Both the position numbers and the translations under genes were made by a program. The notes beneath the pieces are model-generated. The model saw only the letters and a program-made list of their open reading frames with translations, was not told where the DNA came from and searched no databases. Shown here in pieces: positions 6,956 to 42,539 of a stretch of DNA of 64,000 nucleotides. The stretch lies in assembly GCF_965237845.1 (NCBI RefSeq), contig NZ_OZ250154.1:2589141-2653140 (forward strand), in the 5' to 3' direction. The first letter of the stretch is position 1; every line of letters starts with the position of its first letter. The stretch comes from Candidatus Spongiihabitans sp. (GTDB lineage: Bacteria > Pseudomonadota > Gammaproteobacteria > Arenicellales > Poriferihabitantaceae).

Positions 6956-7780
6956 TTATTTTTTCCTTCTGCGAATAATCATGGATGATGTTCGTTTATT
7001 AGAACGGGTTCGGTATCCTTTGGTCGGAACACCCCAGGGCGATATCGGATGACGGCCGCCTGAAGTACGCCCTTCACCACCACCATGAGGGTGATCCACT
7101 GGGTTCATTGCGACACCCCGTACTGTGGGGCGAATGCCTCTCCAGCGGTTGGCGCCGGCCTTGCCAATCTTACGCAAGCTATTTTCGGCGTTACCCACTT
7201 GACCAATGGTCGCGCGACAATCCAGATGCACTTTTCTTACTTCTCCAGAACGCAACCGAAGCTGGGCATATGACCCTTCATTGCCGAGAAATTGCACTCC
7301 AGCCCCGGCGGTGCGTGCGATTTGCGCGCCTTTGCCGGGTTTAAGTTCCACGCAATGCACCACGGTTCCGACCGGGATGTTACGCAACGGCATACAGTTG
7401 CCGACGTTATAACCACCACCGACACCAGAAACCACCGTATCACCCGCCGCTAAACCACGCGCAGCAATAATGTAACGGTGCTCGCCATCTTTATAAACCA
7501 GCAATGCAATGTGAGCGCTTCGATTAGGATCGTATTCGATACGCTTAATCGTCGCCGGGACGCCGTCTTTATTGCGCTTGAAATCAACAACTCGATAATG
7601 GCGTTTGTGCCCGCCGCCACGATGCCGCACAGTGATACGACCCTCATTATTTCTGCCGCTGATTGCGGTTTTAGGTTTCAGCAACGGCTTATGGGGTTTA
7701 CCTTTATGCAAATCCGGAGTCACTACCTTGACCATCCCTCTGCGGCCTGGCGTAGTCGGTTTTTGTTTTACTAGTGCCAT
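6956..7780 (-). CDS. rplB: 50S ribosomal protein L2
   Basis: EYDPNRSA...[17 protein letters not shown]; start placed at MALVK. Confidence 0.98.
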
Positions 7781-7815
7781 TTTAATTAACTGCCTACTTG
7801 CCAAACTAATCTTGA

Positions 7816-8175
7816 TTACGCTCCCGCCACGCCAAGAAAATCAATGTCCTGACCTTCCTGTAAACAAACATAAGCCTTTTTCCAACTGCTGCGCGCCCCC
7901 GGAGTTTTGCCAAATCTCTTGACCTTGCCACATACATTAACCACTTGAACATTTTTCACCTTCACCTCAAATAATTTTTCCACGGCCTGGCGAATTTCAT
8001 CTTTACTCGCATCGATTTTGACCTGAAAAACCACCTGATTGTGTTTATCCGCAAGCACAGTCGATTTTTCTGAAATCACCGGCTTAAGGATGATTTGGTA
8101 TAACCGTTCTTCATCAAGCACAACGGACCTCGCTTCGTTGCCTTTATACCTGCTTTTTCGTTTTGGCAAACTCAT
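7816..8175 (-). CDS. rplW: 50S ribosomal protein L23 (start uncertain, possible N-terminal extension)
   Basis: PVISEKS...[10 protein letters not shown]...WKKAYV. Confidence 0.95.
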
Positions 8176-8795
8176 TGGAAAGCCTCATCTATGTTTTTAG
8201 CGGCGTCCACGGTCATCACCACTTTTTCATAACGAATTAAGCTTACCGGATCGATTTCGCGGCTGTTACAAACCGCAACCGATTTCAAATTACGCGCTGA
8301 AAGTTCAACATTATCGTTATCTTCAGCCAATACTATTAATGCTTGTACAGCCTCTAGTTTGCTCAAAGTCTCGAGCAATGATTTGGTCTTGGGCGCATCC
8401 ATAGATAACTCATCCACCACAACCAATCTATCCTGACGCGCTAACTCGGAAAGTATCGAGCGCATGGCTGCGCGATACATTTTCTTGTTCACCTTTTGTG
8501 AGAAGTCCTGAGTGGAAGCGGGAAAAGTACGACCACCGCCGACGAATATCGGGCTACGAATAGTGCCTACCCGGGCACGTCCAGAGCCTTTTTGCTTCCA
8601 GGGTTTGACGCCGCCGCCACGTACCGCTGCGCGATTTTTCTGGGCCCGGGTACCACTCCGACCTCCGGCTTGATACGCGGTCACGACCTGATGCACCAAC
8701 GCTTGGTTAAATTTAACGCCAAAGCTAATGTCGGACAAACCGACCTTGCCGTCTTTGCCATCGGTGAGTTTGTTTACTTTTAATTGAATCGTCAT
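8172..8795 (-). CDS. rplD: 50S ribosomal protein L4
   Basis: [17 protein letters not shown]. Confidence 0.98.
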
Positions 8796-9526
8796 TTCTT
8801 TTCCTCGTCAGACTGCTTACCCGTCTGCTCATCAGCATTGATCTGAGTACTGTGTTCAACAATCGCCGCATTATCAGGCATGGGCAGAACTGCATCAGAT
8901 TTAACCGCTGGCCGAATAATCACATCGGCGCCTTTGGAGCCCGGGATACAGCCGCTGATCAAAATAATGTTTCGTTCGCTATCCACCCTTACCACGACCA
9001 GATTCTGCTGGACTGCTCGTTCGGCACCCATATGCCCGGCCATTTTCTTGCCTTTGAATACTCGACCTGGATCCTGGGCATTACCAATGGAACCACTTAA
9101 TCTGTGGGCTTTAGAGTTGCCATGGGATGCACGACCACCACGAAAACCATGACGCTTCATAACACCTGCAAAGCCCTTGCCGATGGATTGACCAGTGACA
9201 TCAACTTTTTGACCTTCTTCAAACAAACCAACGGTTAGTTCGTTGCCGGCCTGAGCATCAGCTGGCGCTTCAAGTCGAAACTCCCAAACACCACGCCCAG
9301 GCTCTACCCCGGCTTTAGCAAAATGGCCTTTCATTGCTTTGGTTACCCGGTTAGCCGGTCGCTCGCCTGTGGTCAATTGCAAACCGTTATAACCGTCCAC
9401 TGCCTGGGTTTTGATCTGAGTGATCTTATTCGGCAAAACTTCAATCACCGTTACCGGCTGAGATTTACCTTGTTCGGTAAAAATCCGGGTCATGCCGATT
9501 TTTTTTCCAACCAATCCCAATGACAT
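8792..9526 (-). CDS. rplC: 50S ribosomal protein L3 with acidic C-terminal extension
   Basis: GKKIGMT...[11 protein letters not shown]...[10 protein letters not shown]. Confidence 0.98.
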
Positions 9527-9915: not shown

Positions 9916-11109
9916 CTATGCAATAATTTTAGTCACCACGCCGGCGCCCACAGTGCGACCGCCCTCGCGGATGGCGAAGCGCAAGCCGTCTTCCATGGCA
10001 ATCGGCGCTATCAACTCCACCGCCAACCGCACATTGTCCCCAGGCATCACCATCTCCACATCCTTCGGCAACTCGCACGCCCCCGTGACATCCGTCGTCC
10101 TGAAATAAAACTGCGGACGATAGCCTTTGAAAAATGGCGTATGCCGTCCACCCTCCTCCTTCGACAATATATACACCTCTGCCTCAAACCGGGTGTGCGG
10201 CGTGATTGACTTCGGCTTCGCCAACACCTGACCACGCTCCACTTCCTCTCGCTTGGTACCGCGCAACAAAACACCCACATTGTCCCCTGCCCGACCCTCG
10301 TCCAATAACTTCCGGAACATCTCAACGCCTGTGCATACCGTCGTCATCGTCTCTTTCAAACCAATAATCTCAATCGCTTCATTCACCTTGACCACTCCGC
10401 GCTCAATACGACCGGTCACCACCGTGCCCCGACCGGAAATCGAAAACACATCCTCCACCGGCATCAAAAAGTCGCCGTCAACCTTGCGCTCAGGCTCCGG
10501 AATATAACTGTCCAAGGCCGCCGCCAACTTGAATATCGAACCCTCGCCCATCTCCGAAGAATCACCTTCCAACGCCTTCAACGCGCTGCCGACAACGATC
10601 GGCGTGTCGTCCCCAGGAAATTCGTAACTGTCCAGCAACTCGCGCACCTCCATCTCAACCAACTCCATCAACTCCTCATCGTCTACCAAATCAGCCTTGT
10701 TCAAAAACACCACGATATACGGAACCCCAACCTGTCGCGCTAATAATATGTGCTCGCGGGTCTGCGGCATCGGTCCGTCCGCCGCCGAAACCACCACTAT
10801 CGCGCCATCCATCTGCGCCGCGCCGGTGATCATGTTCTTGACATAATCCGCATGACCAGGACAATCCACGTGCGCATAGTGCCGCGCCTCAGTCTCATAT
10901 TCCACGTGCGCGGTCGCAATCGTGATGCCGCGCTCACGCTCCTCCGGCGCATTGTCTATCTCATCAAACGCCTTCGCCGACGTGCCGCCGTACTTCGCCG
11001 ACAATACCCTGGTCATCGCCGCCGTCAGCGTCGTCTTGCCGTGATCCACGTGCCCTATCGTGCCAACATTCACATGCGGCTTGGTTCTCTCAAATCTCTC
11101 TTTCGACAT
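9916..11109 (-). CDS. tuf: Elongation factor Tu (str operon copy)
   Basis: [12 protein letters not shown] and NKAD motifs; follows fusA. Confidence 0.99.
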
Positions 11110-11201
11110 GGTTTATCTCTTAACAATCTGATTTTTGCGTTGATTTTTTCTTGAAATTTATTTAAACTTATTTATTGGGCTAATGAATCAAACATGCCCG
11201 A

Positions 11202-13301
11202 TTAAGTATTTCTGATGGCTTCAGTTATGCTGGTCGGAACCGGCGCATACCTTTTGAATTCCATCGTATAGTTAGCTCGTCCCTGAGTCGCAGAGCGCAA
11301 CGAGGTGGCATAGCCAAACATTTCAGACAGAGGCACCTCAGCTTTTACAACTTTTCCACTCGCCGAATCTTCCATCTCCTGGATAAGACCGCGACGCGAA
11401 CTCAAATCGCCATTAACACTACCCATATATTCTTCCGGGGTAACTACTTCTACCGCCATCATTGGTTCAAGCAACTGTGGCCCTGCTTGTCTTGCGCCTT
11501 CTCTAAAAGCCATGGCCCCGGCCGCTTTAAAGGCATGTTCGGATGAATCCACTTCATGATACGAGCCATAAAATAACGTGGCCCTCACATCTATCACCGG
11601 GTAACCGGCAACCACCCCTGACTGCATTGCATCCTGAATTCCTTTATCCACCGCAGGAATAAATTCGCGAGGAATAACCCCACTCTTGATTTCGTCAATA
11701 AATTCGTAGCCCGCGCCCATTTTCTGGGGTTTCAGACGAAGGTGGACATGGCCATACTGGCCTCGTCCGCCGGTCTGCTTGGCGTATTTATGTTCGGTTT
11801 CGATAGTTTTAGTAATGGTTTCGCGGTAGGCAACCTGAGGTTTGCCGATATTGGCGTCTACGCTGAATTCCCTTTTTAACCTGTCGAGAATGATTTCCAA
11901 GTGTAATTCGCCCATTCCCGAGATAATCGTTTGTCCAGATTCTTCATCAGACCTGACTCTGAAAGAGGGATCTTCCCGTGCCAATTTGCCCAATGCGATG
12001 CCCAGTTTTTCCTGATCGGTTTTGGTTTTAGGTTCCACCGCCTGGGAAATAACCGGTTCCGGGAATTCCATCCGCTCCAATACCACTTCGGAATTGATAG
12101 CGCACAAGGTATCGCCGGTGGTAACGCTTTTAAGTCCAACTGCAGCGGCTATATCGCCGACATGTACTTCCTTAATATCTTCACGGTTATTGGAATGCAT
12201 CTGTAGAATTCGACCGATGCGCTCTTTTTTACCTTTTACTGAATTAAGCACCGTATCCCCGGATTTGACCATGCCTGAGTAAACTCGAAAGAATACCAGT
12301 TGTCCGAAAAATGAATCAGACATGATCTTAAAGGCCAGCGCTGAAAATGGTTCGTTGTCATCCGCTTTTCGCACTCTTTCAAATGACAATCCCGCGATGT
12401 CTGCCGCAATCCCATTGATAGCTGGCACATCCAGTGGGCTCGGCATGAAATCGACAACACCGTCAAGCATTGCTTGCACACCCTTGTTTTTAAATGCAGA
12501 GCCACAGAAAACCGGAATAATTTCATTGTTAAGTGTACGTATTCGAATTCCTTTTTTGAGGTCCTGCTCGCTTAACGCTCCTTGCTCAAAGTACTTATCC
12601 ATCATTGTATCGTCTGCTTCGGCTGCAGCTTCCACCAGTTTCGCATGATATTCACCGCACAATTCAACTAACTGTTCAGGAATGTCGCGATATTCAAACT
12701 CAACACCCATGTTTTCTTCTTTCCAGTAAATCGCTTTCATTTTGACCAGATCGACAACACCCTTGAAGTTTTCTTCGGAGCCAATGTTTAGCTGCACAAC
12801 AACCGGGTTAGCGCCCAGACGAGTTTTGATTTGTTCAACCACTCGCAAGAAATCCGCGCCAGTGCGATCCATTTTATTGATGAAAGCCATGCGCGGCACT
12901 TTGTACCTGTTGGCTTGTCGCCAAACTGTTTCAGATTGCGGCTCTACGCCACCTACTGCACAAAAAACCGCCACGGCGCCATCCAGTACGCGCAGTGCCC
13001 GCTCTACTTCAATGGTGAAGTCGACGTGGCCCGGGGTGTCGATAATATTGATTCGATGTTCTGGCAGGTCTTTATCCAGGCCGCTCCAAAAACAAGTAGT
13101 GGCAGCGGAAGTGATGGTGATGCCCCTTTCCTGTTCCTGTTCCATCCAGTCCATTACCGCATTACCGTCGTGAACCTCGCCAATTTTGTGGGACAGTCCG
13201 GTATAGAAAAGCACGCGTTCGGTGGTCGTGGTCTTGCCGGCATCAATGTGGGCCATGATGCCAATGTTACGATAACGGTGTAGAGGCGTTTTACGTGCCA
13301 T
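11202..13301 (-). CDS. fusA: Elongation factor G
   Basis: [17 protein letters not shown] and NKMD motifs; start placed at MARKTP. Confidence 0.99.
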
Positions 13302-13329
13302 ATGCTTAATTGTACTACCGCTAATCAAA

Positions 13330-13800
13330 CTAAAAACGGTAATGCGAGAATGCTTTGTTGGCTTCAGCCATTTTCAGCGTGTCTTCACGTTTTTTAACGG
13401 CACTGCCGCGATCATCAGAAGCATCCATCAACTCACCGGCCAAGCGGGCGGTCATGGATTTTTCGTTTCTTTTTCGAGCCGCTTCCACTAACCAGCGCAT
13501 GGCTAATGCTATTTGACGATTGGGTCGCACTTCAATTGGAATCTGGTAGGTTGCGCCACCCACTCGGCGACTTTTTACTTCGACGCTAGGGCTTACTTTT
13601 TCCAATGCTTGGTTGAAAATACCGACAGGGTCTTCTTTGCCGCGCTGTTTGATAATGTCAAGGGCGTCGTAGATGATCTTTTCGGCAATGGATTTCTTGC
13701 CATCAAGCATTATGATGTTAATAAATTTTGCAATGGTCTGGTCCTTAAACTTGGGATCAGGCAATATTTTGCGCTTCGGTATTTCTCGTCTTCTTGGCAT
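13330..13800 (-). CDS. rpsG: 30S ribosomal protein S7
   Basis: MPRRR...RRVGGATYQ...MAEANKAF. Confidence 0.99.
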
Positions 13801-27183: not shown

Positions 27184-27259
27184 TGGCAGGCCAGGAGGGA
27201 ATCGAACCCCCAACCTGCGGTTTTGGAGACCGCCGCTCTGCCAATTGAGCTACTGGCCT
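27184..27259 (-). tRNA. trpT: tRNA-Trp(CCA)
   Basis: AGGCCAGUAGCUCAAUUGG...GCGGU CUCCAAA ACCGC...GGUUCGAUUCC...GCCA. Confidence 0.97.
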
Positions 27260-27446
27260 TCGAACCGACATGGGATGTTATGGACACCCTTATTTTGGAC
27301 CTGTTCAAAACTGTCTCATAATAAAACACCCGAGAGGCGAAACGAATCCCGGATGTTCTGGTAATATTTGATTAAAATCGCCTCTAGTTTACTGGCTAGT
27401 TTGCTGTCTAATTTACCGCCGAACCAATATCCGCGGCCTTTATTGA

Positions 27447-28640
27447 CTATGCAATAATTTTAGTCACCACGCCGGCGCCCACAGTGCGACCGCCCTCGCG
27501 GATGGCGAAGCGCAAGCCGTCTTCCATGGCAATCGGCGCTATCAACTCCACCGCCAACCGCACATTGTCCCCAGGCATCACCATCTCCACATCCTTCGGC
27601 AACTCGCACGCCCCCGTGACATCCGTCGTCCTGAAATAAAACTGCGGACGATAGCCTTTGAAAAATGGCGTATGCCGTCCACCCTCCTCCTTCGACAATA
27701 TATACACCTCTGCCTCAAACCGGGTGTGCGGCGTGATTGACTTCGGCTTCGCCAACACCTGACCACGCTCCACTTCCTCTCGCTTGGTACCGCGCAACAA
27801 AACACCCACATTGTCCCCTGCCCGACCCTCGTCCAATAACTTCCGGAACATCTCAACGCCTGTGCATACCGTCGTCATCGTCTCTTTCAAACCAATAATC
27901 TCAATCGCTTCATTCACCTTGACCACTCCGCGCTCAATACGACCGGTCACCACCGTGCCCCGACCGGAAATCGAAAACACATCCTCCACCGGCATCAAAA
28001 AGTCGCCGTCAACCTTGCGCTCAGGCTCCGGAATATAACTGTCCAAGGCCGCCGCCAACTTGAATATCGAACCCTCGCCCATCTCCGAAGAATCACCTTC
28101 CAACGCCTTCAACGCGCTGCCGACAACGATCGGCGTGTCGTCCCCAGGAAATTCGTAACTGTCCAGCAACTCGCGCACCTCCATCTCAACCAACTCCATC
28201 AACTCCTCATCGTCTACCAAATCAGCCTTGTTCAAAAACACCACGATATACGGAACCCCAACCTGTCGCGCTAATAATATGTGCTCGCGGGTCTGCGGCA
28301 TCGGTCCGTCCGCCGCCGAAACCACCACTATCGCGCCATCCATCTGCGCCGCGCCGGTGATCATGTTCTTGACATAATCCGCATGACCAGGACAATCCAC
28401 GTGCGCATAGTGCCGCGCCTCAGTCTCATATTCCACGTGCGCGGTCGCAATCGTGATGCCGCGCTCACGCTCCTCCGGCGCATTGTCTATCTCATCAAAC
28501 GCCTTCGCCGACGTGCCGCCGTACTTCGCCGACAATACCCTGGTCATCGCCGCCGTCAGCGTCGTCTTGCCGTGATCCACGTGCCCTATCGTGCCAACAT
28601 TCACATGCGGCTTGGTTCTCTCAAATCTCTCTTTCGACAT
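27447..28640 (-). CDS. tuf: Elongation factor Tu (tRNA operon copy)
   Basis: Protein identical to 9916-11109; lies downstream of the Thr-Tyr-Gly-Thr tRNAs. Confidence 0.99.
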
Positions 28641-28786
28641 GGTTCAATTCTCGCAAATTTCAAATAATCAAATAATCAATAACCTTATGGGCTAATTAAT
28701 ACGCCAATTTCACTAAAACCCAAGCTAAAAAACCTGAACTAAAAAACAACATCGTTCGGTTACAAATTCTTCACCGCCATACAAAC

Positions 28787-28862
<76 letters not shown>

Positions 28863-29016
28863 GCTCATAAAGACGGTAGAACCGCTTTAACCGTCATTTC
28901 ATTTCCGGCTACCTACAATCCGGCGATCCAGCCAGAACATCAACTAAACTCCACTAAGCGCTAGCTAAGTCCCGGACCGTTTTCAATCACCCCCCTCTCT
29001 TTCTGACCCGACCTTT

Positions 29017-29091
29017 TGGAGCGGGTGATGGGAATCGAACCCACATCATCAGCTTGGAAGGCTGAGGTTCTAGCCTTTGAACTACACCCGC
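29017..29091 (-). tRNA. glyT: tRNA-Gly(UCC)
   Basis: Cloverleaf with anticodon loop CUUCCAA and CCA end. Confidence 0.97.
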
Positions 29092-29125
29092 ATATCTTTC
29101 TAACTGCCAAGCCCCATTCACCCAA

Positions 29126-29210
29126 TGGTGGAGGGGGGAGGATTCGAACCTCCGAAGGCTGAGCCAGCAGATTTACAGTCTGCCCCCTTTGACCGCTCGG
29201 GAACCCCTCC
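29126..29210 (-). tRNA. tyrU: tRNA-Tyr(GUA)
   Basis: Cloverleaf with long variable arm, anticodon loop CUGUAAA and CCA end. Confidence 0.97.
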
Positions 29211-32667: not shown

Positions 32668-33828
32668 ATGGCACAACCAAATCAACCGCGGCGCAATCAA
32701 ACTCGGGAAGTAAAAATTGGCGGCATTACCATTGGTAATGGGCATCCCATTGCAGTGCAAAGTATGTGCGCCACGCCAACCACGGATATTCCAGCCACCT
32801 TGAAACAGATAAAATCTCTGCAGGCGGTCGGTGCGGATGTTATTCGCATAGCGGCAGACAACAAAAAAGATGCCCAGGCATTGATCGAACTTCGCCAGCA
32901 AACACCAGCGGTGCTTAGCGTGGATTTACAGGAAAACTATCGTCTGGCAGAAATTTTAGCGCCTCACGTCGATAAAATTCGCTACAATCCCGGCCATCTT
33001 TACCACCATGAACGCAACAAACCGTGGAAGGATAAAGTGCGGTATCTGGCGGATATAGCAGATAAACACGATTGTGCTATGCGAGTTGGCGTCAATGCCG
33101 GATCTGTTGACCCGGATAAACTTGCGCGCCATTCCTCCGACATGCCCGCCGATGCCAGTGCCAGCGAGTCGGTGTTGCCCATGGTAGAAAGCGCTCTTGA
33201 ACATAGCGAATGGTTGGATCAAATCGGGTTTACCCGCTATTGTGTATCGCTAAAAGACTCTGACCCCAAAAAAGCAATTTCGGCATATCGGCAATTTGCA
33301 GACACCCGACCTGACATCCCATTGCATCTGGGCGTTACTGAAGCGGGTATGCCGCCGGAAGGAATAGAAAAAACCAGAATCGCTTTCGAGCAACTGATCG
33401 GCAAGGGCATCGGCGATACCATAAGGGTCTCGCTGACTTTGCCATATGACGACAAACACCAGGAAATTAGCGCTGGTCGACAAATATTAAAAGACATTTC
33501 AGCAGGTCGGGTCAGAACGGTGGTTCACTTCAATGAAAATAAATTGAATCTGATCAGCTGCCCAAGTTGCTCGCGGGTTGAAAACGAAGCCTTTATCGAC
33601 CTGGCCGAAAAAGTAAAAGCAACAACCCGGTATGCCGAAGATCATGCTATTACTATTGCGGTGATGGGATGTCGGGTAAACGGCCCTGGAGAGACTGATG
33701 ATGCCGACCTCGGATTATGGTGTGGCCCAAACTACGTCAACCTTAAAAAACGAGGGGAAAAAATCGGCGCATTCAAGTATGACGAAATTCTCGACCAGCT
33801 CGACAGCCAACTTAAATCCTTGATTTAA
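32668..33828 (+). CDS. ispG: (E)-4-hydroxy-3-methylbut-2-enyl-diphosphate synthase
   Basis: [38 protein letters not shown] and [12 protein letters not shown] motifs. Confidence 0.95.
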
Positions 33829-33951
33829 GGCGGCCTGAGCCTTATTATTCCGTCGCTTTTTGCGTGCCTGCGGTACGACAACAACGCTGAACAAATAAAA
33901 ATCAGGCTCTGGATAACTTGAGCGCAGCCTGTCCACTCCCGAGCAGTCAGG

Positions 33952-34905
33952 TCACAAGAACCCATCCCCCGCATGATCATTAAGGCTATCGGCATCTCGG
34001 ATATATTTCATCACCGTGGCCGGGTTTCGATGGCGGGTGATTTCCATAATTTTGTCTATCCGAGCGCCATGTACCGCGGCGCTGGTTACAAAGCCCGCTC
34101 GCAGCGAATGCCCGGCAATCTCTGAAGCGTCCAAGCCAATCTCGGCGGCGTAATGCTTGACGATGCGCGGCACGTCGGAAGGGTGCATATGCGAGCCGCG
34201 CAACTTGCCGCCGCGAAACATTGTCTGGAATACCGGCCCTGACAAAATACCGGCAGCACTCAGCCAGTCTTGCAAGTATTTTATTGGCTTGAGTTTCTTG
34301 CCTTCGGGGATGGCGATTTTCTGACCCAGCCCCTCCTGGTCGGTTTTCGATTTTCGGATATGCAGAAACATTCTCGGGCGTTCCTCATCATCTATAATTT
34401 CGAGATCGTCAATGGTTAAGCCGCAAATCTCAGACCTACGCAATGCCGCCGCAAACCCTAGCGCGATAATTGCCGCATCGCGCTTGCCGATAAGCGTGTC
34501 CGGGCATTTGTCCAACATTGTCTTGATATGATGCTCACGCAAGGCTTTCACCTGTCTCGGCGGCGCGCTCCTGAGGCGCGCCAAGCCCTTGCAGACGCGA
34601 GCGACTTCCGGGTGGTTGGTGGGCGAGGCTGCATTCTGATCGACATGTTTTCGGTTGATCGCGCTACGCCACAAAATCACCGTGCCCAACGCAGGCAGCT
34701 TGCCGTTGGCGCCCGGCTTGGTTGCCGTTTGCACTAGAAACCGTGCCACATCCGATGGATTCGCTGGCAGCGCAGTGATGTTGTTTTGATTACAGTATCG
34801 CTGCCAAAGATGCCAGCCTTTATCGTAAGCAATGCGCGTGTTGTCGGCTAACACCGATGACAGGATGTCGGTGTATGTGTCGTTAATGTTAAATGATTGA
34901 AGCAT
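33952..34905 (-). CDS. Tyrosine recombinase/integrase (Cre-like, with N-terminal SAM-like domain)
   Basis: Catalytic set intact: ALRRSE (R), SKTD (K), HSLR (HxxR), TRH (H), MKYIR (Y). Confidence 0.93.
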   Translation of the reverse strand: MLQSFNINDTYTDILSSVLADNTRIAYDKGWHLWQRYCNQNNITALPANPSDVARFLVQTATKPGANGKLPALGTVILWRSAINRKHVDQNAASPTNHPEVARVCKGLARLRSAPPRQVKALREHHIKTMLDKCPDTLIGKRDAAIIALGFAAALRRSEICGLTIDDLEIIDDEERPRMFLHIRKSKTDQEGLGQKIAIPEGKKLKPIKYLQDWLSAAGILSGPVFQTMFRGGKLRGSHMHPSDVPRIVKHYAAEIGLDASEIAGHSLRAGFVTSAAVHGARIDKIMEITRHRNPATVMKYIRDADSLNDHAGDGFL

Positions 34906-35146
34906 AGTCTATTCACTCAGTTAAAAATAAACTCACTTTATCCGAGAACTAAAGACTATGAGAAGGCAACCAATGAGAAACGGCTTCGTCTATGGCAGTA
35001 TTTAAGGATTTCTTAGCGGTGGTATGGTAAATATTGCAATGGCGTGTCCGGGTGAAAATTATTTTTTGTTGCTGCGAGTTATCCAGACAAATCACAAAGT
35101 CGCATAGTGGCGCGCAGTGATGGATAAGGTGGTTCTTCCAGATTTC

Positions 35147-35971
35147 TTAAAACAAAGATTCTTGCCGTTCTCTTCCAGGGTAAAAAACACCCACAATAAC
35201 AAACGGATTGGTTGCCCAACCATGATATTTCAGGGTTGTTCCTAAAAATAGCAAAACATCGCATTCTTTAGTAAATTTATCAAAATATTTGTTCCGCACT
35301 TGTTGAATAGCCATTTTTTCATCGCCGTTACAGTTTTTTAAGCAATTCCAATATAGTGCACCTATTTCCCAATCTTCTATCATCAAGGTAGGTTCCTTGC
35401 CCTTTATATCCTCAAATTTATATGAAAATTTATAGGGTAATTTATCAACATGCTCAAACTCTTTTTTTACTTCTTCCTCTGTTTGAAAAAGCGATAATTG
35501 CCTGTATTTTTCTTCTAAAACTGCTAATTTTTCACTGTCCCATTCTCTCTCCACTTCCTCAATAATGAAATCAATAATTTTTGCAGGCTTAAAAGTTGCC
35601 AAGGATAAGACGTTATCCTGATTAGCTTTTGCAATTAAATCGGTTAAATCTTCGTATATGGTGCTTTGATTAACAATTTCCTTACGTCTGTACCAATTCT
35701 GCTCGGTGTTTAATTCCTCAATTATCTTTAAGGATGATAAATTTTTGACTTTACGGCTTTCAGGTCTAATATCTGAATAATTGCGTTCTAAGTCTAATTC
35801 TATCCACTGCCATTTTTTATATTGCTGTTCATTTTCTAATGCTCTAAATGATAATGGATAAATCCTTACCCAAGTCCCATCTTCTAAAAACCCAGCAGTG
35901 CAAACCAACTCACTATATCTTTTTGATAATGTCGGATAGGTTTTGACGCTAATAAGAACCTTGGTCAGCAT
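35147..35971 (-). CDS. Conserved hypothetical protein, partner of the DUF488 gene
   Basis: 274-aa AT-rich ORF with KTYP...ELVCTAG...WVRIYP and IEDWEIGALYW motifs; starts 2 nt after the upstream stop. Confidence 0.8.
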   Translation of the reverse strand: MLTKVLISVKTYPTLSKRYSELVCTAGFLEDGTWVRIYPLSFRALENEQQYKKWQWIELDLERNYSDIRPESRKVKNLSSLKIIEELNTEQNWYRRKEIVNQSTIYEDLTDLIAKANQDNVLSLATFKPAKIIDFIIEEVEREWDSEKLAVLEEKYRQLSLFQTEEEVKKEFEHVDKLPYKFSYKFEDIKGKEPTLMIEDWEIGALYWNCLKNCNGDEKMAIQQVRNKYFDKFTKECDVLLFLGTTLKYHGWATNPFVIVGVFYPGRERQESLF

Positions 35972-35973
35972 AA

Positions 35974-36891
35974 TTACAGATGAATGGTTTGAGTTTTATA
36001 ATTATCAGAAAGATAATCAGTAACGCAATGACGATGGCAATCATGGTGGTGTTTTTCAAAACAAGTCAGGGCAATTCTTCGATGCTTTTTTTGCAAGTCT
36101 AATACCTTATTCAGCGCTTCTTCTCTAGCAGGCAATGTGGTTTTATATTCATCAAATAACTTTTTATAATCCTCTTTATTATTCAAATCTTGTCTTTTAT
36201 TAGACTCAACCCCCAACTGAGGAATATGCACATATTCAATATCCAATTTAGGCAAAATATCATTCAGCGCTTTATAGCTAAAACCAAATTTTCGACTAAA
36301 CGGATTTTTTCTTATATCGCCGATCAGTTTTATATTATTTTTAATCAGTTTATTAATATATGCCTCCAAAGTGATGCCTTCATAACCAATCGTATAAATC
36401 GTTGATTCAAAACTGATAAGTTTTTCTTTTTCTTGTCTGATTTGCTTTATAACTCCAGACGGACAGATATTCGTAATTTGGCTTTTAGTCGCATAATACG
36501 GATAATTTTTATATACAAAAACAACTAAAGCATTACCCTTCAATCGTTTTTGTTCATCAGGATATTTAAACAAACTATTACTATCTTTAATCCTCAACCA
36601 AAGAGCAGGTTTTTCTACTTTCAATTTTATCTTGCTATCAACAATCTCAATAAAACCCCGTTCAGACAAATTCAGTAAATCCTTGTCCAGTTGAAAAGAA
36701 TAGCAGCCATATTGATAAGGAACAAAATCATAACCCATAGGCGCTTGTTGCGAAAATAAAAAGCTATGCTTCTGTAACTCCGTTCTGGTTACTTCTGTAT
36801 TGATAAAACGCAACAAGGACAGTAAAAATCGTTGACGATAGAATTTTGGCTTGTTGTTTTGAATGTTCATAGGTAACATTTTACAATTCAT
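35974..36891 (-). CDS. DUF488-domain protein with N-terminal winged-helix/SocA-like region
   Basis: C-terminal half: IYTIGYEG, DIR..P.SRK.GFS, Y.HIPQLG, ALTCFE....CHR. N-terminal half: LQK..FL...Y.F.PY.YG.YS..L..DL. Confidence 0.82.
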   Translation of the reverse strand: MNCKMLPMNIQNNKPKFYRQRFLLSLLRFINTEVTRTELQKHSFLFSQQAPMGYDFVPYQYGCYSFQLDKDLLNLSERGFIEIVDSKIKLKVEKPALWLRIKDSNSLFKYPDEQKRLKGNALVVFVYKNYPYYATKSQITNICPSGVIKQIRQEKEKLISFESTIYTIGYEGITLEAYINKLIKNNIKLIGDIRKNPFSRKFGFSYKALNDILPKLDIEYVHIPQLGVESNKRQDLNNKEDYKKLFDEYKTTLPAREEALNKVLDLQKKHRRIALTCFEKHHHDCHRHCVTDYLSDNYKTQTIHL

Positions 36892-37267
36892 TTTTTACCT
36901 TGGTGGTCTCTAGTTTCTATTTGTAAAAAATTTAGTATCCATTGGGGACTTCTGCTACTGAGTTAATCAGGTATCCTAGTGTTGTTTTAGTACTGAGGAG
37001 GATGCTCGCTATTTTACTGAATTTTTAGCGTTCTGCAGAATCTTTTAATCACCGTTTACAACGAAACTACAATATTAGGCATGGTTTACTTGCAGTGAAA
37101 AGCAAAGAAAATTTGACATCAAAGTAAAAGGCGCGTCGATTGAAAATAAAGGAAATCGTAGTCACTGAAAGCCATCAAAAAAATCATCTGATACCATTCA
37201 CCGCAGTTATGCCTTGTTTGCTAGAATGCGGTTTTAATTATTCACTACTAACTTTAAGGTACGAAAA

Positions 37268-39109
37268 ATGCCTGACTACCGATCCTGGACCACAACTCGC
37301 GGCAGAACCATGGCCGGGGCGCGCGCTTTGTGGCGCGCTACTGGAATGAAAGAGGATGATTTCAACAAACCCATCATTGCCGTTTCCAACTCATTCACGC
37401 AATTCGTGCCCGGACATGTGCATTTAAAAGACATGGGGCAATTGGTTGCCCGTGAAATCGAAGCGGCCGGTGGCGTTGCCAAAGAATTTAATACGATTGC
37501 CATCGATGATGGCATCGCCATGGGGCATGGCGGCATGCTGTATTCATTGCCGTCTCGGGAAATCATCGCCGATTCGGTGGAATATATGGTTAACGCCCAT
37601 TGTGCAGACGCGTTGGTTTGCATCTCCAACTGCGACAAGATCACGCCGGGGATGCTAATGGCCGCCATGCGCCTTAACATTCCGGCGATTTTTGTCTCGG
37701 GCGGGCCGATGGAGGCCGGCAAAGTAACCTGGCGCGATCATGAGAAATCGGTGGACCTGATTGACGCCATGATGGTGGCCGGCGATGACACTGTGACCGA
37801 CCGCGAATCTGAAAATATGGAGCGTTCCGCCTGCCCGACCTGCGGTTCCTGTTCTGGCATGTTCACCGCAAACTCGATGAATTGCCTGGCAGAAGCTTTG
37901 GGGCTTGCCCTGCCTGGCAACGGCACCCTGGTCGCCACCCATAGCGAGCGCGAGCGATTATTTCTCGAAGCAGGGCGAGCCATCGTTGCCGCCGCAAAGC
38001 GATATTATGAACAAGACGATGACGATGTGTTACCGAGATCCATCGCCAACTTTGAGGCTTTTGAAAACGCGATGTCGCTGGATATCGCTATGGGCGGATC
38101 GACCAATACTGTGCTGCATCTGCTCGCTGCAGCGCATGAGGGAGAAATCGAATTTACCATGAAAGACATCGACCGCTTGAGTCGCAAGGTGCCGAACCTG
38201 TGTAGAGTCGCGCCGGCCACACCCGATTATCATGTTGAGGATGTACATCGTGCCGGTGGCGTCATGGCCATACTTGGCGAGTTGGACCGTGCCGGCTTGA
38301 TAAACCGCAATGCCAAAACTGTCCACGCTTCCAGTATCGAACAAGCCATCGCGCTTTGGGATATACGCTTTGTCAATGACCAAAAACGAAAAGATTTTTT
38401 CCGCTCGGCGCCCGGCGGCGTGCCTACTCAGGTGGCGTTTAGTCAAAGCAAACGTTATAAATCCCTGGATTTAGACCGGGAAAATGGATGTATCCGCGAC
38501 CTCGACCATGCTTACAGCAAGGACGGCGGGTTGGCGGTACTGTTTGGCAATCTCGCCGAACAGGGCTGTATCGTCAAAACCGCCGGCGTCGATGAGAACA
38601 TTCTAAAGTTCACCGGCAAAGCCAGGATTTTTGAAAGCCAGGACGCTGCCGTGGACGGGATTCTTGGAAATCAAATTAACGCAGGAGACGTTGTTGTGGT
38701 TCGATACGAAGGGCCAAGGGGCGGTCCCGGAATGCAGGAAATGCTCTATCCAACCACCTACTTAAAATCGAAAGGCCTGGGCAAAACCTGCGCCCTGATT
38801 ACCGACGGGCGATTTTCCGGCGGCACTTCGGGGCTGTCCATCGGACACGTTTCACCGGAAGCCGCAGAGGGAGGGCTGATTGGTCTGGTAGAAGAATATG
38901 ACGCCATCGAAATAGATATTCCAAATCGAACCATCCATCTTGCCGTCGAGCAAGCGGATTTGGAGCAACGCAGAACAAACATGAATGCAAAGGGCCAGGC
39001 CGGATGGAAACCCAATCGGCACCGAGTGGTTAGTGTTGCGCTTAAAGCTTATGCGCGGCTCAGTACCAGTGCGTCCAGGGGTGCGGTCAGAGATGTAACC
39101 CAGCTATAA
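37268..39109 (+). CDS. ilvD: Dihydroxy-acid dehydratase
   Basis: [39 protein letters not shown] and TDGRFSG motifs. Confidence 0.98.
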
Positions 39110-40499: not shown

Positions 40500-40726
40500 G
40501 CAACCTCTCCAGCGACATAGGCCGCGGTTATGTTTCCCTTGGGATTGGCAAAAAGCTCTTCGGTATTGTTTACTTCAATGATGGTGCCTGCATTGTTGCG
40601 GCACCAGAATACTGCAGATCGGTCCGAAATACGCTTTGCTTGTGCGATATTATGGGTCACCAGCACGATGGTGCATTTCTCCTTGAGTGACGCAATCGAA
40701 TTTTCGACTGTCATACTGGAGATCAT
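40496..40726 (-). pseudogene. pstB: C-terminal remnant of phosphate ABC ATPase PstB
   Basis: ISS..VE..I..LKE..TIVLVTHNIAQA.RISD...F.NP....T..YV.G; Walker A/B and the signature motif are missing. Confidence 0.75.
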
Positions 40727-40930
40727 GACAATAAGACAATATTTTGGTCCAATGCCGTGAGACTGTGAAAGAGCTGCCTTTGGGGAAATTTTGACATGCT
40801 AATATTATTCCATGCTAAAATGAAAATTAGACCCTTTCAAAAATGTCAATATATTTACCTTTTGCTCAATTTGACACAGTTTATTTTTACATCCTGTAAA
40901 ACCTGTAAAATTTCCACTCTATTTCCGCGA

Positions 40931-41386
40931 ATGCTGACTGAACTTGACAAAAAAATTCTCATCGCCCTAAGAGATGATGGCCGGGCAAGTTGGAGTGCGC
41001 TTGCCAAAAGGTTTTCGGTCTCCCGGGTAACCATTCAAAACAGAGTCGAATCCATGCGAGTACGGAAAATCATCAAGGGTTATACGGTGGTTGCAAATGT
41101 TAATTCTGCCAAGGCCGGCATATCTGAGGAAAAGGTATTTTTTATGTTGCAGTTTGTCGCTGGTGATTCTTTTTTTGGTTTGTGCAAGTTGTTGTCCACT
41201 TCGCCGCATGTGCTGGGCATTTGGTGCGTGGCCGGCGAGTGGGATTGTTTTGTGTTGGTAAGTGCGTCAAGTTTGCGGGAGGTGGCAAAATTGCGTGAGC
41301 ACATTTTTGACAAAATAAAAATCAAAAAACTCGAAACTCACCCGGTATTGAACGATTGCCCGCCAGATTTCATGGAGTCCAAATGA
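40931..41386 (+). CDS. Lrp/AsnC family transcriptional regulator
   Basis: LDKKILIALRDDGRAS...LAKRFSVSRVTIQNRV HTH and VAGEWD; start placed at MLTELD. Confidence 0.9.
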   Translation: MLTELDKKILIALRDDGRASWSALAKRFSVSRVTIQNRVESMRVRKIIKGYTVVANVNSAKAGISEEKVFFMLQFVAGDSFFGLCKLLSTSPHVLGIWCVAGEWDCFVLVSASSLREVAKLREHIFDKIKIKKLETHPVLNDCPPDFMESK

Positions 41387-41547
41387 TGTTTAATTATTTG
41401 TCCACGGGTTCTTGAACAACAAAGTTTGGGGCTGACACCTAACATTTGAAATGTGAGGGTTGGAATATGCATGTAAAGCATTGCGAATTAACAAGAACTC
41501 CTGACAACGTTCTTGCTTGATTCGCAACGAACCCAGATGGGCGATGG

Positions 41548-41670
41548 TCAAAGGATAACTCGGTTGTATAAGCCGGCCAGGTCATGGAACAGTTCATCCT
41601 CGTGATAACCGCCGGGGTTTTCTTGGATGGTGCGATTGAAGCGTTCGACATGGGCGTTCATTTTGGGCGA
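41548..41670 (-). mobile_element. Degenerate IS481-like transposase fragment
   Basis: SPKMNAHVERFNRTIQE...YHEDELFHDL matches the end of the integrase core of IS481/IS3-type DDE transposases; the rest is lost. Confidence 0.65.
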
Positions 41671-41798
41671 TCGATTGTTCCAGCACCCGCACCCAAACGG
41701 TTGGCGGATCAATATCGATACAACCAACATCGGTTTATTGTAACATCGTTGGGAAGGATGGTGTAACGCAATCATTCGCCACAATTTCACTTTCAGGA

Positions 41799-42539
41799 TT
41801 ATGCTATCGAGGTTAACAGCCCATAGCCGCAGATAACCACCAACACTATCCCCAAAATGCGTTTGTATTTATCTCCCCCGTCTTGGATTAGCCTGTTATG
41901 CATGTTCAAGCCCAACCAATGACCAATCGCCGCCACAGGAAGAAGATATAGAGAGTATTTAAATTGCAAATCAATTTCAAAAGCCACGAAAGTGGACATC
42001 TTTATCGTCACCAATATCATCCAGGTTACAAATAAGGTGTTACGCAGTTTCTCGATAGCCACGTTTCTGGCGAAAACCGCGGATATGAGCGGCGCGCCGA
42101 TTAGCGAAGTTCCGCTTGCATAACCGCCCATAACCAACAATATGTTGTCCACCAACCGATTTTTACTTTTGAATGAATAATTAAAAACGTAAGTAAGGCC
42201 ATAACAAAATGTGATTCCGTAAATCAGGGGCACCAATAAATCATTGGGTAAATTCAGCAATCCGAATACCCCTATTAATTTGGGAATGAGCAGTATCAAC
42301 ATTGCTTTTTTCAAGTACTGCCAATCGACGTCATGCAAACGGTTGTAAACGGTCAGCGCAGAAAAAATCAGTAAATGAGTGGCCACGATTGGCAGCCAAA
42401 GCAATGGGTTGTCAATAATGAATAACATCAACGGCATGGCCAAGGCGGCCCCGCCAAACCCCAGCCCGCTGCGAACAAATCCGGACCAGACAAAAACCAG
42501 GCACACCAGCGCCCATTCAATGGTGGTCAATGGCGGCAT
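41799..42539 (-). CDS. Sulfite exporter TauE/SafE family membrane protein
   Basis: GFVRSGLGFGGAALAMP motif, about 8 TM segments, 246 aa. Confidence 0.85.
   Translation of the reverse strand: MPPLTTIEWALVCLVFVWSGFVRSGLGFGGAALAMPLMLFIIDNPLLWLPIVATHLLIFSALTVYNRLHDVDWQYLKKAMLILLIPKLIGVFGLLNLPNDLLVPLIYGITFCYGLTYVFNYSFKSKNRLVDNILLVMGGYASGTSLIGAPLISAVFARNVAIEKLRNTLFVTWMILVTIKMSTFVAFEIDLQFKYSLYLLPVAAIGHWLGLNMHNRLIQDGGDKYKRILGIVLVVICGYGLLTSIA

Follow-up and report, generated by a model that had tools for sequence, protein, structure and literature searches.

A compact, intact two-gene cassette of 1.75 kb occupies positions 35,147 to 36,891 of a 64,000-nt stretch of the genome of Candidatus Spongiihabitans sp. 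(contig NZ_OZ250154.1 of RefSeq assembly GCF_965237845.1), and the identity, origin and possible function of this cassette are the subject of the present analysis. Throughout, the window denotes that whole 64,000-nt stretch, on whose numbering all positions are given. Both genes lie on the minus strand. Gene A (35974..36891; PDC-M19A) is an open reading frame (ORF) of 305 residues, counted from its first ATG, that joins a winged-helix domain resembling DarG's C-terminal domain to a DUF488 domain, and gene B (35147..35971; PDC-M19B) is an ORF of 274 residues with a predicted double OB fold of DuOB-like type. The two are separated by a gap of 2 nt (35972-35973), and the cassette has a GC content of 0.327 against 0.481 for the window overall, which bears out the two tightly coupled, AT-rich genes described in an earlier note made from the letters alone. 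Since the form of gene A stored in the databases has 298 residues, its true start is probably M8, at position 36870.

At the level of family identity the cassette is readily placed. Gene A matches the PADLOC model PDC-M19A (PDLC04505; E = 4.1e-95, residues 17-300 on profile positions 2-289 of 294) as well as PHROG 14939 (3e-58), and gene B matches PDC-M19B (PDLC04508; E = 5.8e-114, residues 2-274 on profile positions 3-269 of 269) as well as PHROG 25907 (9e-70). As both proteins match the two PDC-M19 models near end to end, and as the genes are adjacent, co-directional and in the order A then B, the cassette is, by sequence comparison, a further copy of a catalogued, predicted anti-phage candidate and not a new kind of system. 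The earlier proposal of a defence or conflict module, possibly uncharacterised, thus holds in so far as the pair belongs to a two-gene accessory family flagged as a defence candidate, and fails in so far as "uncharacterised" was meant as unlisted. PDC-M19 is one of 145 "guilt-by-embedding" candidates, which their source preprint states to be untested predictions, drawn from genes that lie within BREX, DISARM or type I restriction-modification (RM) systems (Payne, Hughes, Fineran & Jackson, 2024, bioRxiv 10.1101/2024.01.29.577857). Relatives of the window pair are likewise embedded in or beside RM systems, whereas the window pair itself stands alone beside a recombinase among housekeeping genes, and embedding in BREX, DISARM or RM genes is not seen here.

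The C-terminal half of gene A (36010..36369; residues 175-294 of the 305-residue form) is a complete DUF488 domain, matched by Pfam PF04343 at E = 6.8e-25 (88.5 bits against a cut-off of 22.2, profile positions 2-121 of 121). The intact cysteine motif noticed earlier is real and conserved, with five residues rather than the four first counted after the glutamate: in an alignment of 39 sequences the columns of the C-x-E-x5-CHR motif (C270, E272, C278, H279, R280 and H281) are invariant, as are the wider signatures GYE, D-R-N-P and C-x-E-x5-C-H-R-H. By VIA-align the domain lies near PTP and dual-specificity phosphatases and the N-terminal domains of CbiL-type methylases (Z 8-8.9), which is consistent with a cysteine-based phosphatase-fold domain of the rhodanese-phosphatase superfamily and a putative enzyme. 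To our knowledge, DUF488 is a very widespread domain without demonstrated activity; Burroughs and Aravind reportedly assigned it in 2023 to a RapZ-C/DUF488/DUF4326 clade with predicted sugar-phosphate and DNA-end processing in conflict systems.

The N-terminal part of gene A (36442..36846; residues 9-143 of the 298-residue form) forms a separate domain in the AlphaFold2 model of the protein (pLDDT 91.9). Its top VIA-align match among 48,161 chains is 7yk3_D, which is DarG in the DarTG complex of M. tuberculosis (133 residues aligned at Z 10.9 and rmsd 3.3), followed by generic ORC/Cdc6 winged helices at Z 8-9.4, and Foldseek also aligns the domain with 7yk3_D (prob 1.00, E = 2e-3). Weak sequence matches to DarG fall in the same region (PADLOC DarG, 6.2e-5; NCBIfam DarG, 4.4e-4), and the alignment profile of gene A reaches 7yk3_B in the PDB at E = 0.026; a PDB sequence search with gene A alone matched nothing. 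Judged by these models, the domain appears most like the toxin-sequestering C-terminal domain of DarG, a fold-level likeness with 16% identity, and it is this specific likeness that the present analysis adds. Residues 53-139 also match, weakly, the C-terminal end of a PADLOC model for type I RM specificity subunits (E = 1.3e-4).

The resemblance to DarTG has clear limits. Lawaree et al. (2020, PMC7003065) describe DarG's C-terminal domain as sequestering the toxin DarT and its macrodomain as reversing the DNA modification, and gene A would share both the sequestering-type fold and its fusion to a domain that may plausibly undo a nucleic-acid modification. In gene A, however, the domain order is reversed and the macrodomain is missing (Pfam finds only DUF488), no DarT gene lies beside the pair, and the partner is an OB-fold protein instead of an ADP-ribosyltransferase. 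The lack of a DarT or macro gene, remarked upon earlier for this locus, extends further: against the 2.74-Mb genome the DarT model gives a single marginal match (E = 8.9e-4) some 2.1 Mb from the pair, the sole match of the DarG model is gene A's own N-terminal domain, and Pfam detects no macro domain in either A or B.

A comparison with SocA/Panacea antitoxins (DUF4065, PF13274) had been drawn at the outset from the conserved F-x-P-Y-x-Y-G-x-Y-S stretch of gene A. The motifs concerned, LQK and FVPYQYGCYS, are present and conserved, and the expectation of an antitoxin-type winged helix survives; Panacea domains are likewise small and of winged-helix type, and in operons resembling those of toxin-antitoxin systems they are fused to or paired with a variety of partners. 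The assignment to SocA_Panacea itself does not survive, as gene A has no Pfam match to it at E <= 0.1 and the best specific match is the DarG C-terminal domain; the ESM Atlas feature leads towards Panacea, in clusters with 13-21% of members carrying PF13274, score 0.83-0.84, below 0.9.

Gene B had been described as having enzyme-like motifs and no function that could be named. The motifs (KTYP, VCTAG, RIYP, D.RPES and EDWE) do fall on conserved columns, and R36, D67, R69, D200 and W201 are invariant among 98 sequences, yet the protein is predicted to fold as a double OB domain in place of a nameless enzyme. Searches by sequence contribute little here, with zero Pfam families at E <= 0.1 (DuOB, PF22557, included) and nothing useful in the PDB (best match only E 0.4), and the assignment derives from the AlphaFold2 model (pLDDT 95.0, pTM 0.91). 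Foldseek returns eight matches at E <= 0.001, all tandem-OB DNA binders (archaeal RPA, HIN-200, Teb1-AB, CST and LEF-3), whose E-values lie between 2e-5 and 5e-4 and whose TM-scores are low (0.23-0.33); VIA-align superposes residues 1-100 on the OB folds of SSB, RPA, PriB and POT1 at a middling Z of ~7. In the ESM Atlas, gene B is assigned to the newer Pfam family PF30888, and the Atlas model of the protein comes closest, with a TM of 0.67, to a cluster in which Pfam DuOB ("dual OB") is represented. Gene B is, on these models, probably an RPA/HIN-like double OB fold structurally near DuOB, and not a recognisable enzyme. It would thus be the kind of OB-fold partner that the earlier note had named as a frequent neighbour of DUF488 genes.

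An SNase-like nuclease was also considered for gene B and found unsupported: the 50 VIA-align matches listed contain zero SNase chains, and an SNase cluster of the Atlas reaches a TM of only 0.49. The D-x-R-P-E stretch of gene B recalls the D-T-P-E of staphylococcal nuclease. Two longer homologues of B, P0391 (876 residues, with a KAP NTPase domain) and P0392 (531 residues, with glycosyltransferase and other domains), are single records and possibly merged gene calls.

A double OB-fold protein coupled to a DUF488 enzyme also characterises the DuOB/DUF488-N3 systems, which are said to go back to Burroughs and Aravind in 2023, and PDC-M45. Gene A matches PDC-M45B (6e-16) and PDC-M45C (4e-12) too; PDC-M45, however, has two DUF488 paralogues, whereas the single DUF488 of PDC-M19 is joined to a DarG-C-like winged helix. 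The match of gene A to DUF488-N3a (PF22751) is marginal (27.7 bits against a cut-off of 27) and confined to profile positions 57-116 of 118. Gene B differs from DuOB proper in lacking the Pfam match and in its assignment to PF30888; beyond the structural proximity, a relative of B from a Gordonia phage (26% identity, E = 3e-19) bridges to the DuOB model through its own weak match (E = 0.002).

Across genomes, the two genes form a strict pair. Relatives of gene B, sought at E <= 0.001, number 7,065 among 90%-identity clusters and 2,073 among 50%-identity representatives, and at least 599 encoding stretches, taken at one genome per species, are distributed over many phyla. In the best 80 of these stretches, chosen by similarity to B and spanning Pseudomonadota, Desulfobacterota, Nitrospirota, Bacteroidota, Bacillota, Spirochaetota, Planctomycetota, Verrucomicrobiota and others, 79 have a homologue of A immediately upstream of B and with the same orientation; in the sole miss, B stands at the very start of a contig. 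The A-B gap, measured with a crude ORF caller, ranges from -67 to +37 nt in 76 of the 79 loci, and a shortened B ORF accounts for the larger gap in loci L021 and L068. Seen from the other gene, full-length A is sparse, occurring in only 3 of the 401 genomes of a phylum sample, the window's own included (60 other matches cover the DUF488 half only), and B adjoins A in all three, including both foreign copies. One protein, P0390 (595 residues), unites the two genes colinearly, with an A part at residues 7-310 (36% identity) and a B part at 328-595 (47% identity); as a single metagenome record it is either a natural fusion or the product of a lost stop codon.

Carriage on mobile elements is recurrent. 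Plasmids contribute 23 records with relatives of B, several of which show an annotated "DUF488 domain-containing protein" next to it; a further 7 records come from Gordonia phages. In Gordonia phage Nymphadora (L096 3021-5268) the B relative, gene 43, follows the immunity repressor and abuts gene 42, which is annotated 'HipA toxin' and proves to be a 150-residue DUF488 protein (Pfam, 1.2e-29); the location of the two genes between the integrase and cro suggests a prophage-expressed DuOB-DUF488 module.

Defence genes are frequent neighbours of the pair. For this comparison, 35 loci with ~9 kb or more on each side were retained (L059 being dropped as a duplicate of L053), and four crude ORFs per side, 280 in all, were scanned against PADLOC, with matches at E <= 1e-12 counted as strong. 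A strong match lies within four ORFs of the pair in 17 of the 35 loci, a frequency given without a matched background and therefore not implying enrichment. RM genes, often of type IIG or type I, are among the neighbours in 9 of the 35, and a type IIG enzyme lies directly upstream of the pair in three loci (L016, L031 and L045). Locus L080 has the pair enclosed by two ORFs (7607-9148 and 10849-13761) that match positions 1010-1356 and 152-801 of the type IIG model PDLC03626, so that either the pair is plainly embedded there or an insertion has divided an RM gene.

At the window locus itself, the cassette lies in a gap between two core genes, ispG (32668..33828, plus strand, GC 0.489) on the left and ilvD (37268..39109, plus strand, GC 0.543, 72-94% nucleotide identity in relatives) on the right. 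In 7 other genera of the family this gap measures less than ~800 bp, and here it holds both the cassette and a tyrosine recombinase (33952..34905, minus strand, 317 residues, GC 0.543). The recombinase is intact by Pfam (Phage_integrase, 6.3e-19) and by PHROG integrase families, and has the orientation of the A-B pair, in agreement with the first description of it as intact and co-oriented. It reaches an integron-integrase model at 0.0024 only, and capture of the cassette in the manner of an integron was set aside. Comparison with the congener G005 delimits a strain-specific segment of approximately 2.2 kb (~34978-37183, from BLAST edges and junction alignments), at whose two ends the similarity breaks off and sets in again; this segment comprises the cassette and its low-GC flanks and leaves the recombinase outside.

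The adjacency to an integrase is real, but integrase and cassette do not form one recent unit. G005 carries an orthologous recombinase (85% nucleotide identity) at the same place beside ispG, and between it and ilvD the cassette is replaced by a gene for a 445-residue protein (L012 2275-3612, minus strand) with an N-terminal ArsR-type helix-turn-helix (HTH) and a HipA_C kinase domain (2e-17); the G005 genome has zero matches to PDC-M19B. In G002 the recombinase is again kept at ispG (85-86% identity across G005 and G002) and the cassette lies on another contig, at 75% nucleotide identity, while in G003 it lies beside lptE-holA (79%), at the edge of a low-GC island that contains a GIY-YIG gene, PDC-S19, a type IIG RM enzyme, VapBC and an SNF2 helicase. 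No convincing att-type direct repeats flank the insert, where only 12-24-nt chance-like pairs were seen. Because congeners keep the recombinase without the cassette beside it, and carry the cassette elsewhere in G002 and G003, the recombinase is, judging from these comparisons, an older resident that marks a variable slot and not the cassette's own integrase. Such a recombinase-marked slot, filled with alternative conflict-type cargo in congeners, is the second point that the present analysis adds. In the junction alignment, a few tandem copies of an 11-nt unit are visible ahead of the G005 HTH-HipA_C gene, which has no PADLOC match. Outside the window, the genome also holds short stretches (G000:C1:435451-435635) with 71-81% identity to the recombinase gene, and these point to a paralogous recombinase or to a fragment.

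Taken together, the difference in GC content (0.33 against 0.48), the other locations in G002 and G003, the carriage on plasmids and phages and the direct adjacency of ispG and ilvD in 7 genera mark the cassette as foreign and mobile. With somewhat better than even confidence, we read it as a horizontally acquired PDC-M19 module in a variable slot beside a resident recombinase, with anti-phage DNA targeting as the working model. According to this model, A and B would act together, as a complex or as a relay. B would find a nucleic-acid structure, most plausibly one belonging to an invading phage or plasmid (single-stranded DNA, for instance, or a DNA end or replication intermediate), and may bind single strands or ends; the winged-helix domain of A could serve as an adaptor that couples A to B or to DNA; and the DUF488 domain might then remove or transfer a phosphate-linked group at a nucleic-acid terminus or sugar, thereby blocking replication of the invader. 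Of all this, the A-B binding, the DNA substrate, the chemistry and any anti-phage effect are inferred; family identities, folds, strict linkage, foreign composition, mobility between loci and phyla and frequent defence-gene neighbours are what the data show.

Several observations weigh against this model. The neighbours of the cassette in the window are the recombinase, ispG and ilvD, with no defence gene adjoining, and 18 of the 35 loci compared have no strong PADLOC neighbour, to which the missing matched background rate adds. A scan for transcription signals yielded 15 sites resembling promoters (9.3 expected) and 6 resembling terminators (3.8 expected), none of them well placed. The invariant acidic and basic residues of gene B (R36, D67, R69 and D200) mean that B is possibly more than a passive binder. 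Finally, a literature search brought up no experiment on PDC-M19 and no publication naming the system, and one for DUF488 with defense or phage listed nothing relevant; a similar search on DuOB yielded nothing relevant by title or abstract opening.

The most interesting rival, which we consider rather unlikely, is a toxin-antitoxin pair of DarTG style acting by abortive infection, in which B would arrest growth by coating or damaging single-stranded DNA and A would be a two-mode antitoxin, its DarG-C-like domain sequestering B and its DUF488 domain, in place of the macrodomain, reversing the lesion or competing at the DNA. The top structural match of the A N-terminal domain (DarG, Z 10.9), echoed by three sequence libraries, speaks for this reading, and DarG itself, in the published description, pairs a sequestering domain with a separate lesion-reversing enzymatic domain (PMC7003065). 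The order of the genes, with the antitoxin-like one first, and their close junctions (2 nt or overlapping) are as usual for type II pairs; B carries the invariant charged residues just mentioned; the same slot in G005 holds a HipA-type kinase, which belongs to a toxin family; and the B ORF is apparently shortened, with A kept, in 3 of the 79 loci. Yet OB folds are not known as toxin folds, neither Foldseek nor VIA-align reveals a DarT-like or other transferase fold in B, the DarG likeness remains one of fold at 16% identity, and relatives of DuOB are fused to helicases (in a DEAD/ResIII cluster), which fits a targeting module better than a toxin. In its most specific form, which is quite doubtful, this reading makes PDC-M19 a DarTG-analogous, reversible DNA-targeting toxin-antitoxin or abortive-infection system assembled from unrelated parts, with the double-OB protein as a new growth arrester directed at single-stranded DNA and a DUF488 domain, tethered by a sequestering domain of DarG type, that reverses a phosphate-linked DNA lesion; if true, this would provide the first biochemical function for DUF488.

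The conservative rival, unlikely as well, is an accessory module for DNA repair or end processing that serves the host or its mobile elements, with B loading onto single-stranded gaps or ends and DUF488 cleaning blocked termini or adducts. The resemblance of B to RPA, SSB, PriB and RecO, the place of DUF488 within the phosphatase-fold superfamily and the 18 loci without a strong defence neighbour would all be at home in such a role. The patchy spread (full-length A in 3 of 401 genomes), the low GC content, the relocation among congeners, the plasmid and prophage carriage and the frequent embedding beside RM genes nevertheless argue for conflict genes rather than a repair pathway. Very improbable, by comparison, is a service role for the recombinase element, for instance in helping an integrative element to be maintained or replicated: the pair is indeed adjacent to and co-oriented with the tyrosine recombinase, but the two differ in GC content (0.54 for the recombinase against 0.33), no att-type repeats are present, congeners keep the recombinase without the cassette there, other genomes carry the cassette without this recombinase, and the pair is found largely away from any recombinase.

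Anti-phage DNA targeting stays the favoured working model for a family that is one among many predicted defence systems awaiting test. The combination of a DarG-type sequestering domain, DUF488 and a double-OB partner offers a structural lead that turns "unknown function" into definite questions of toxicity, binding and phosphoesterase activity, and the locus itself draws attention to a small slot in the chromosome, next to a conserved recombinase, whose conflict-type cargo differs among congeners.

Some minor features of the surroundings may be added. An Rfam search of positions 33000-38000 at E <= 0.1 returned zero matches. A cluster of four tRNA genes (Trp, Thr, Gly and Tyr) lies on the minus strand at 27184-29210. 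A second dip in GC content, to 0.39-0.40, spans positions 40600-41800 around an ORF of 196 residues (40796..41386), and near it lies a short minus-strand ORF (41548..41790) that, by eye, we take to resemble a transposase-core fragment.

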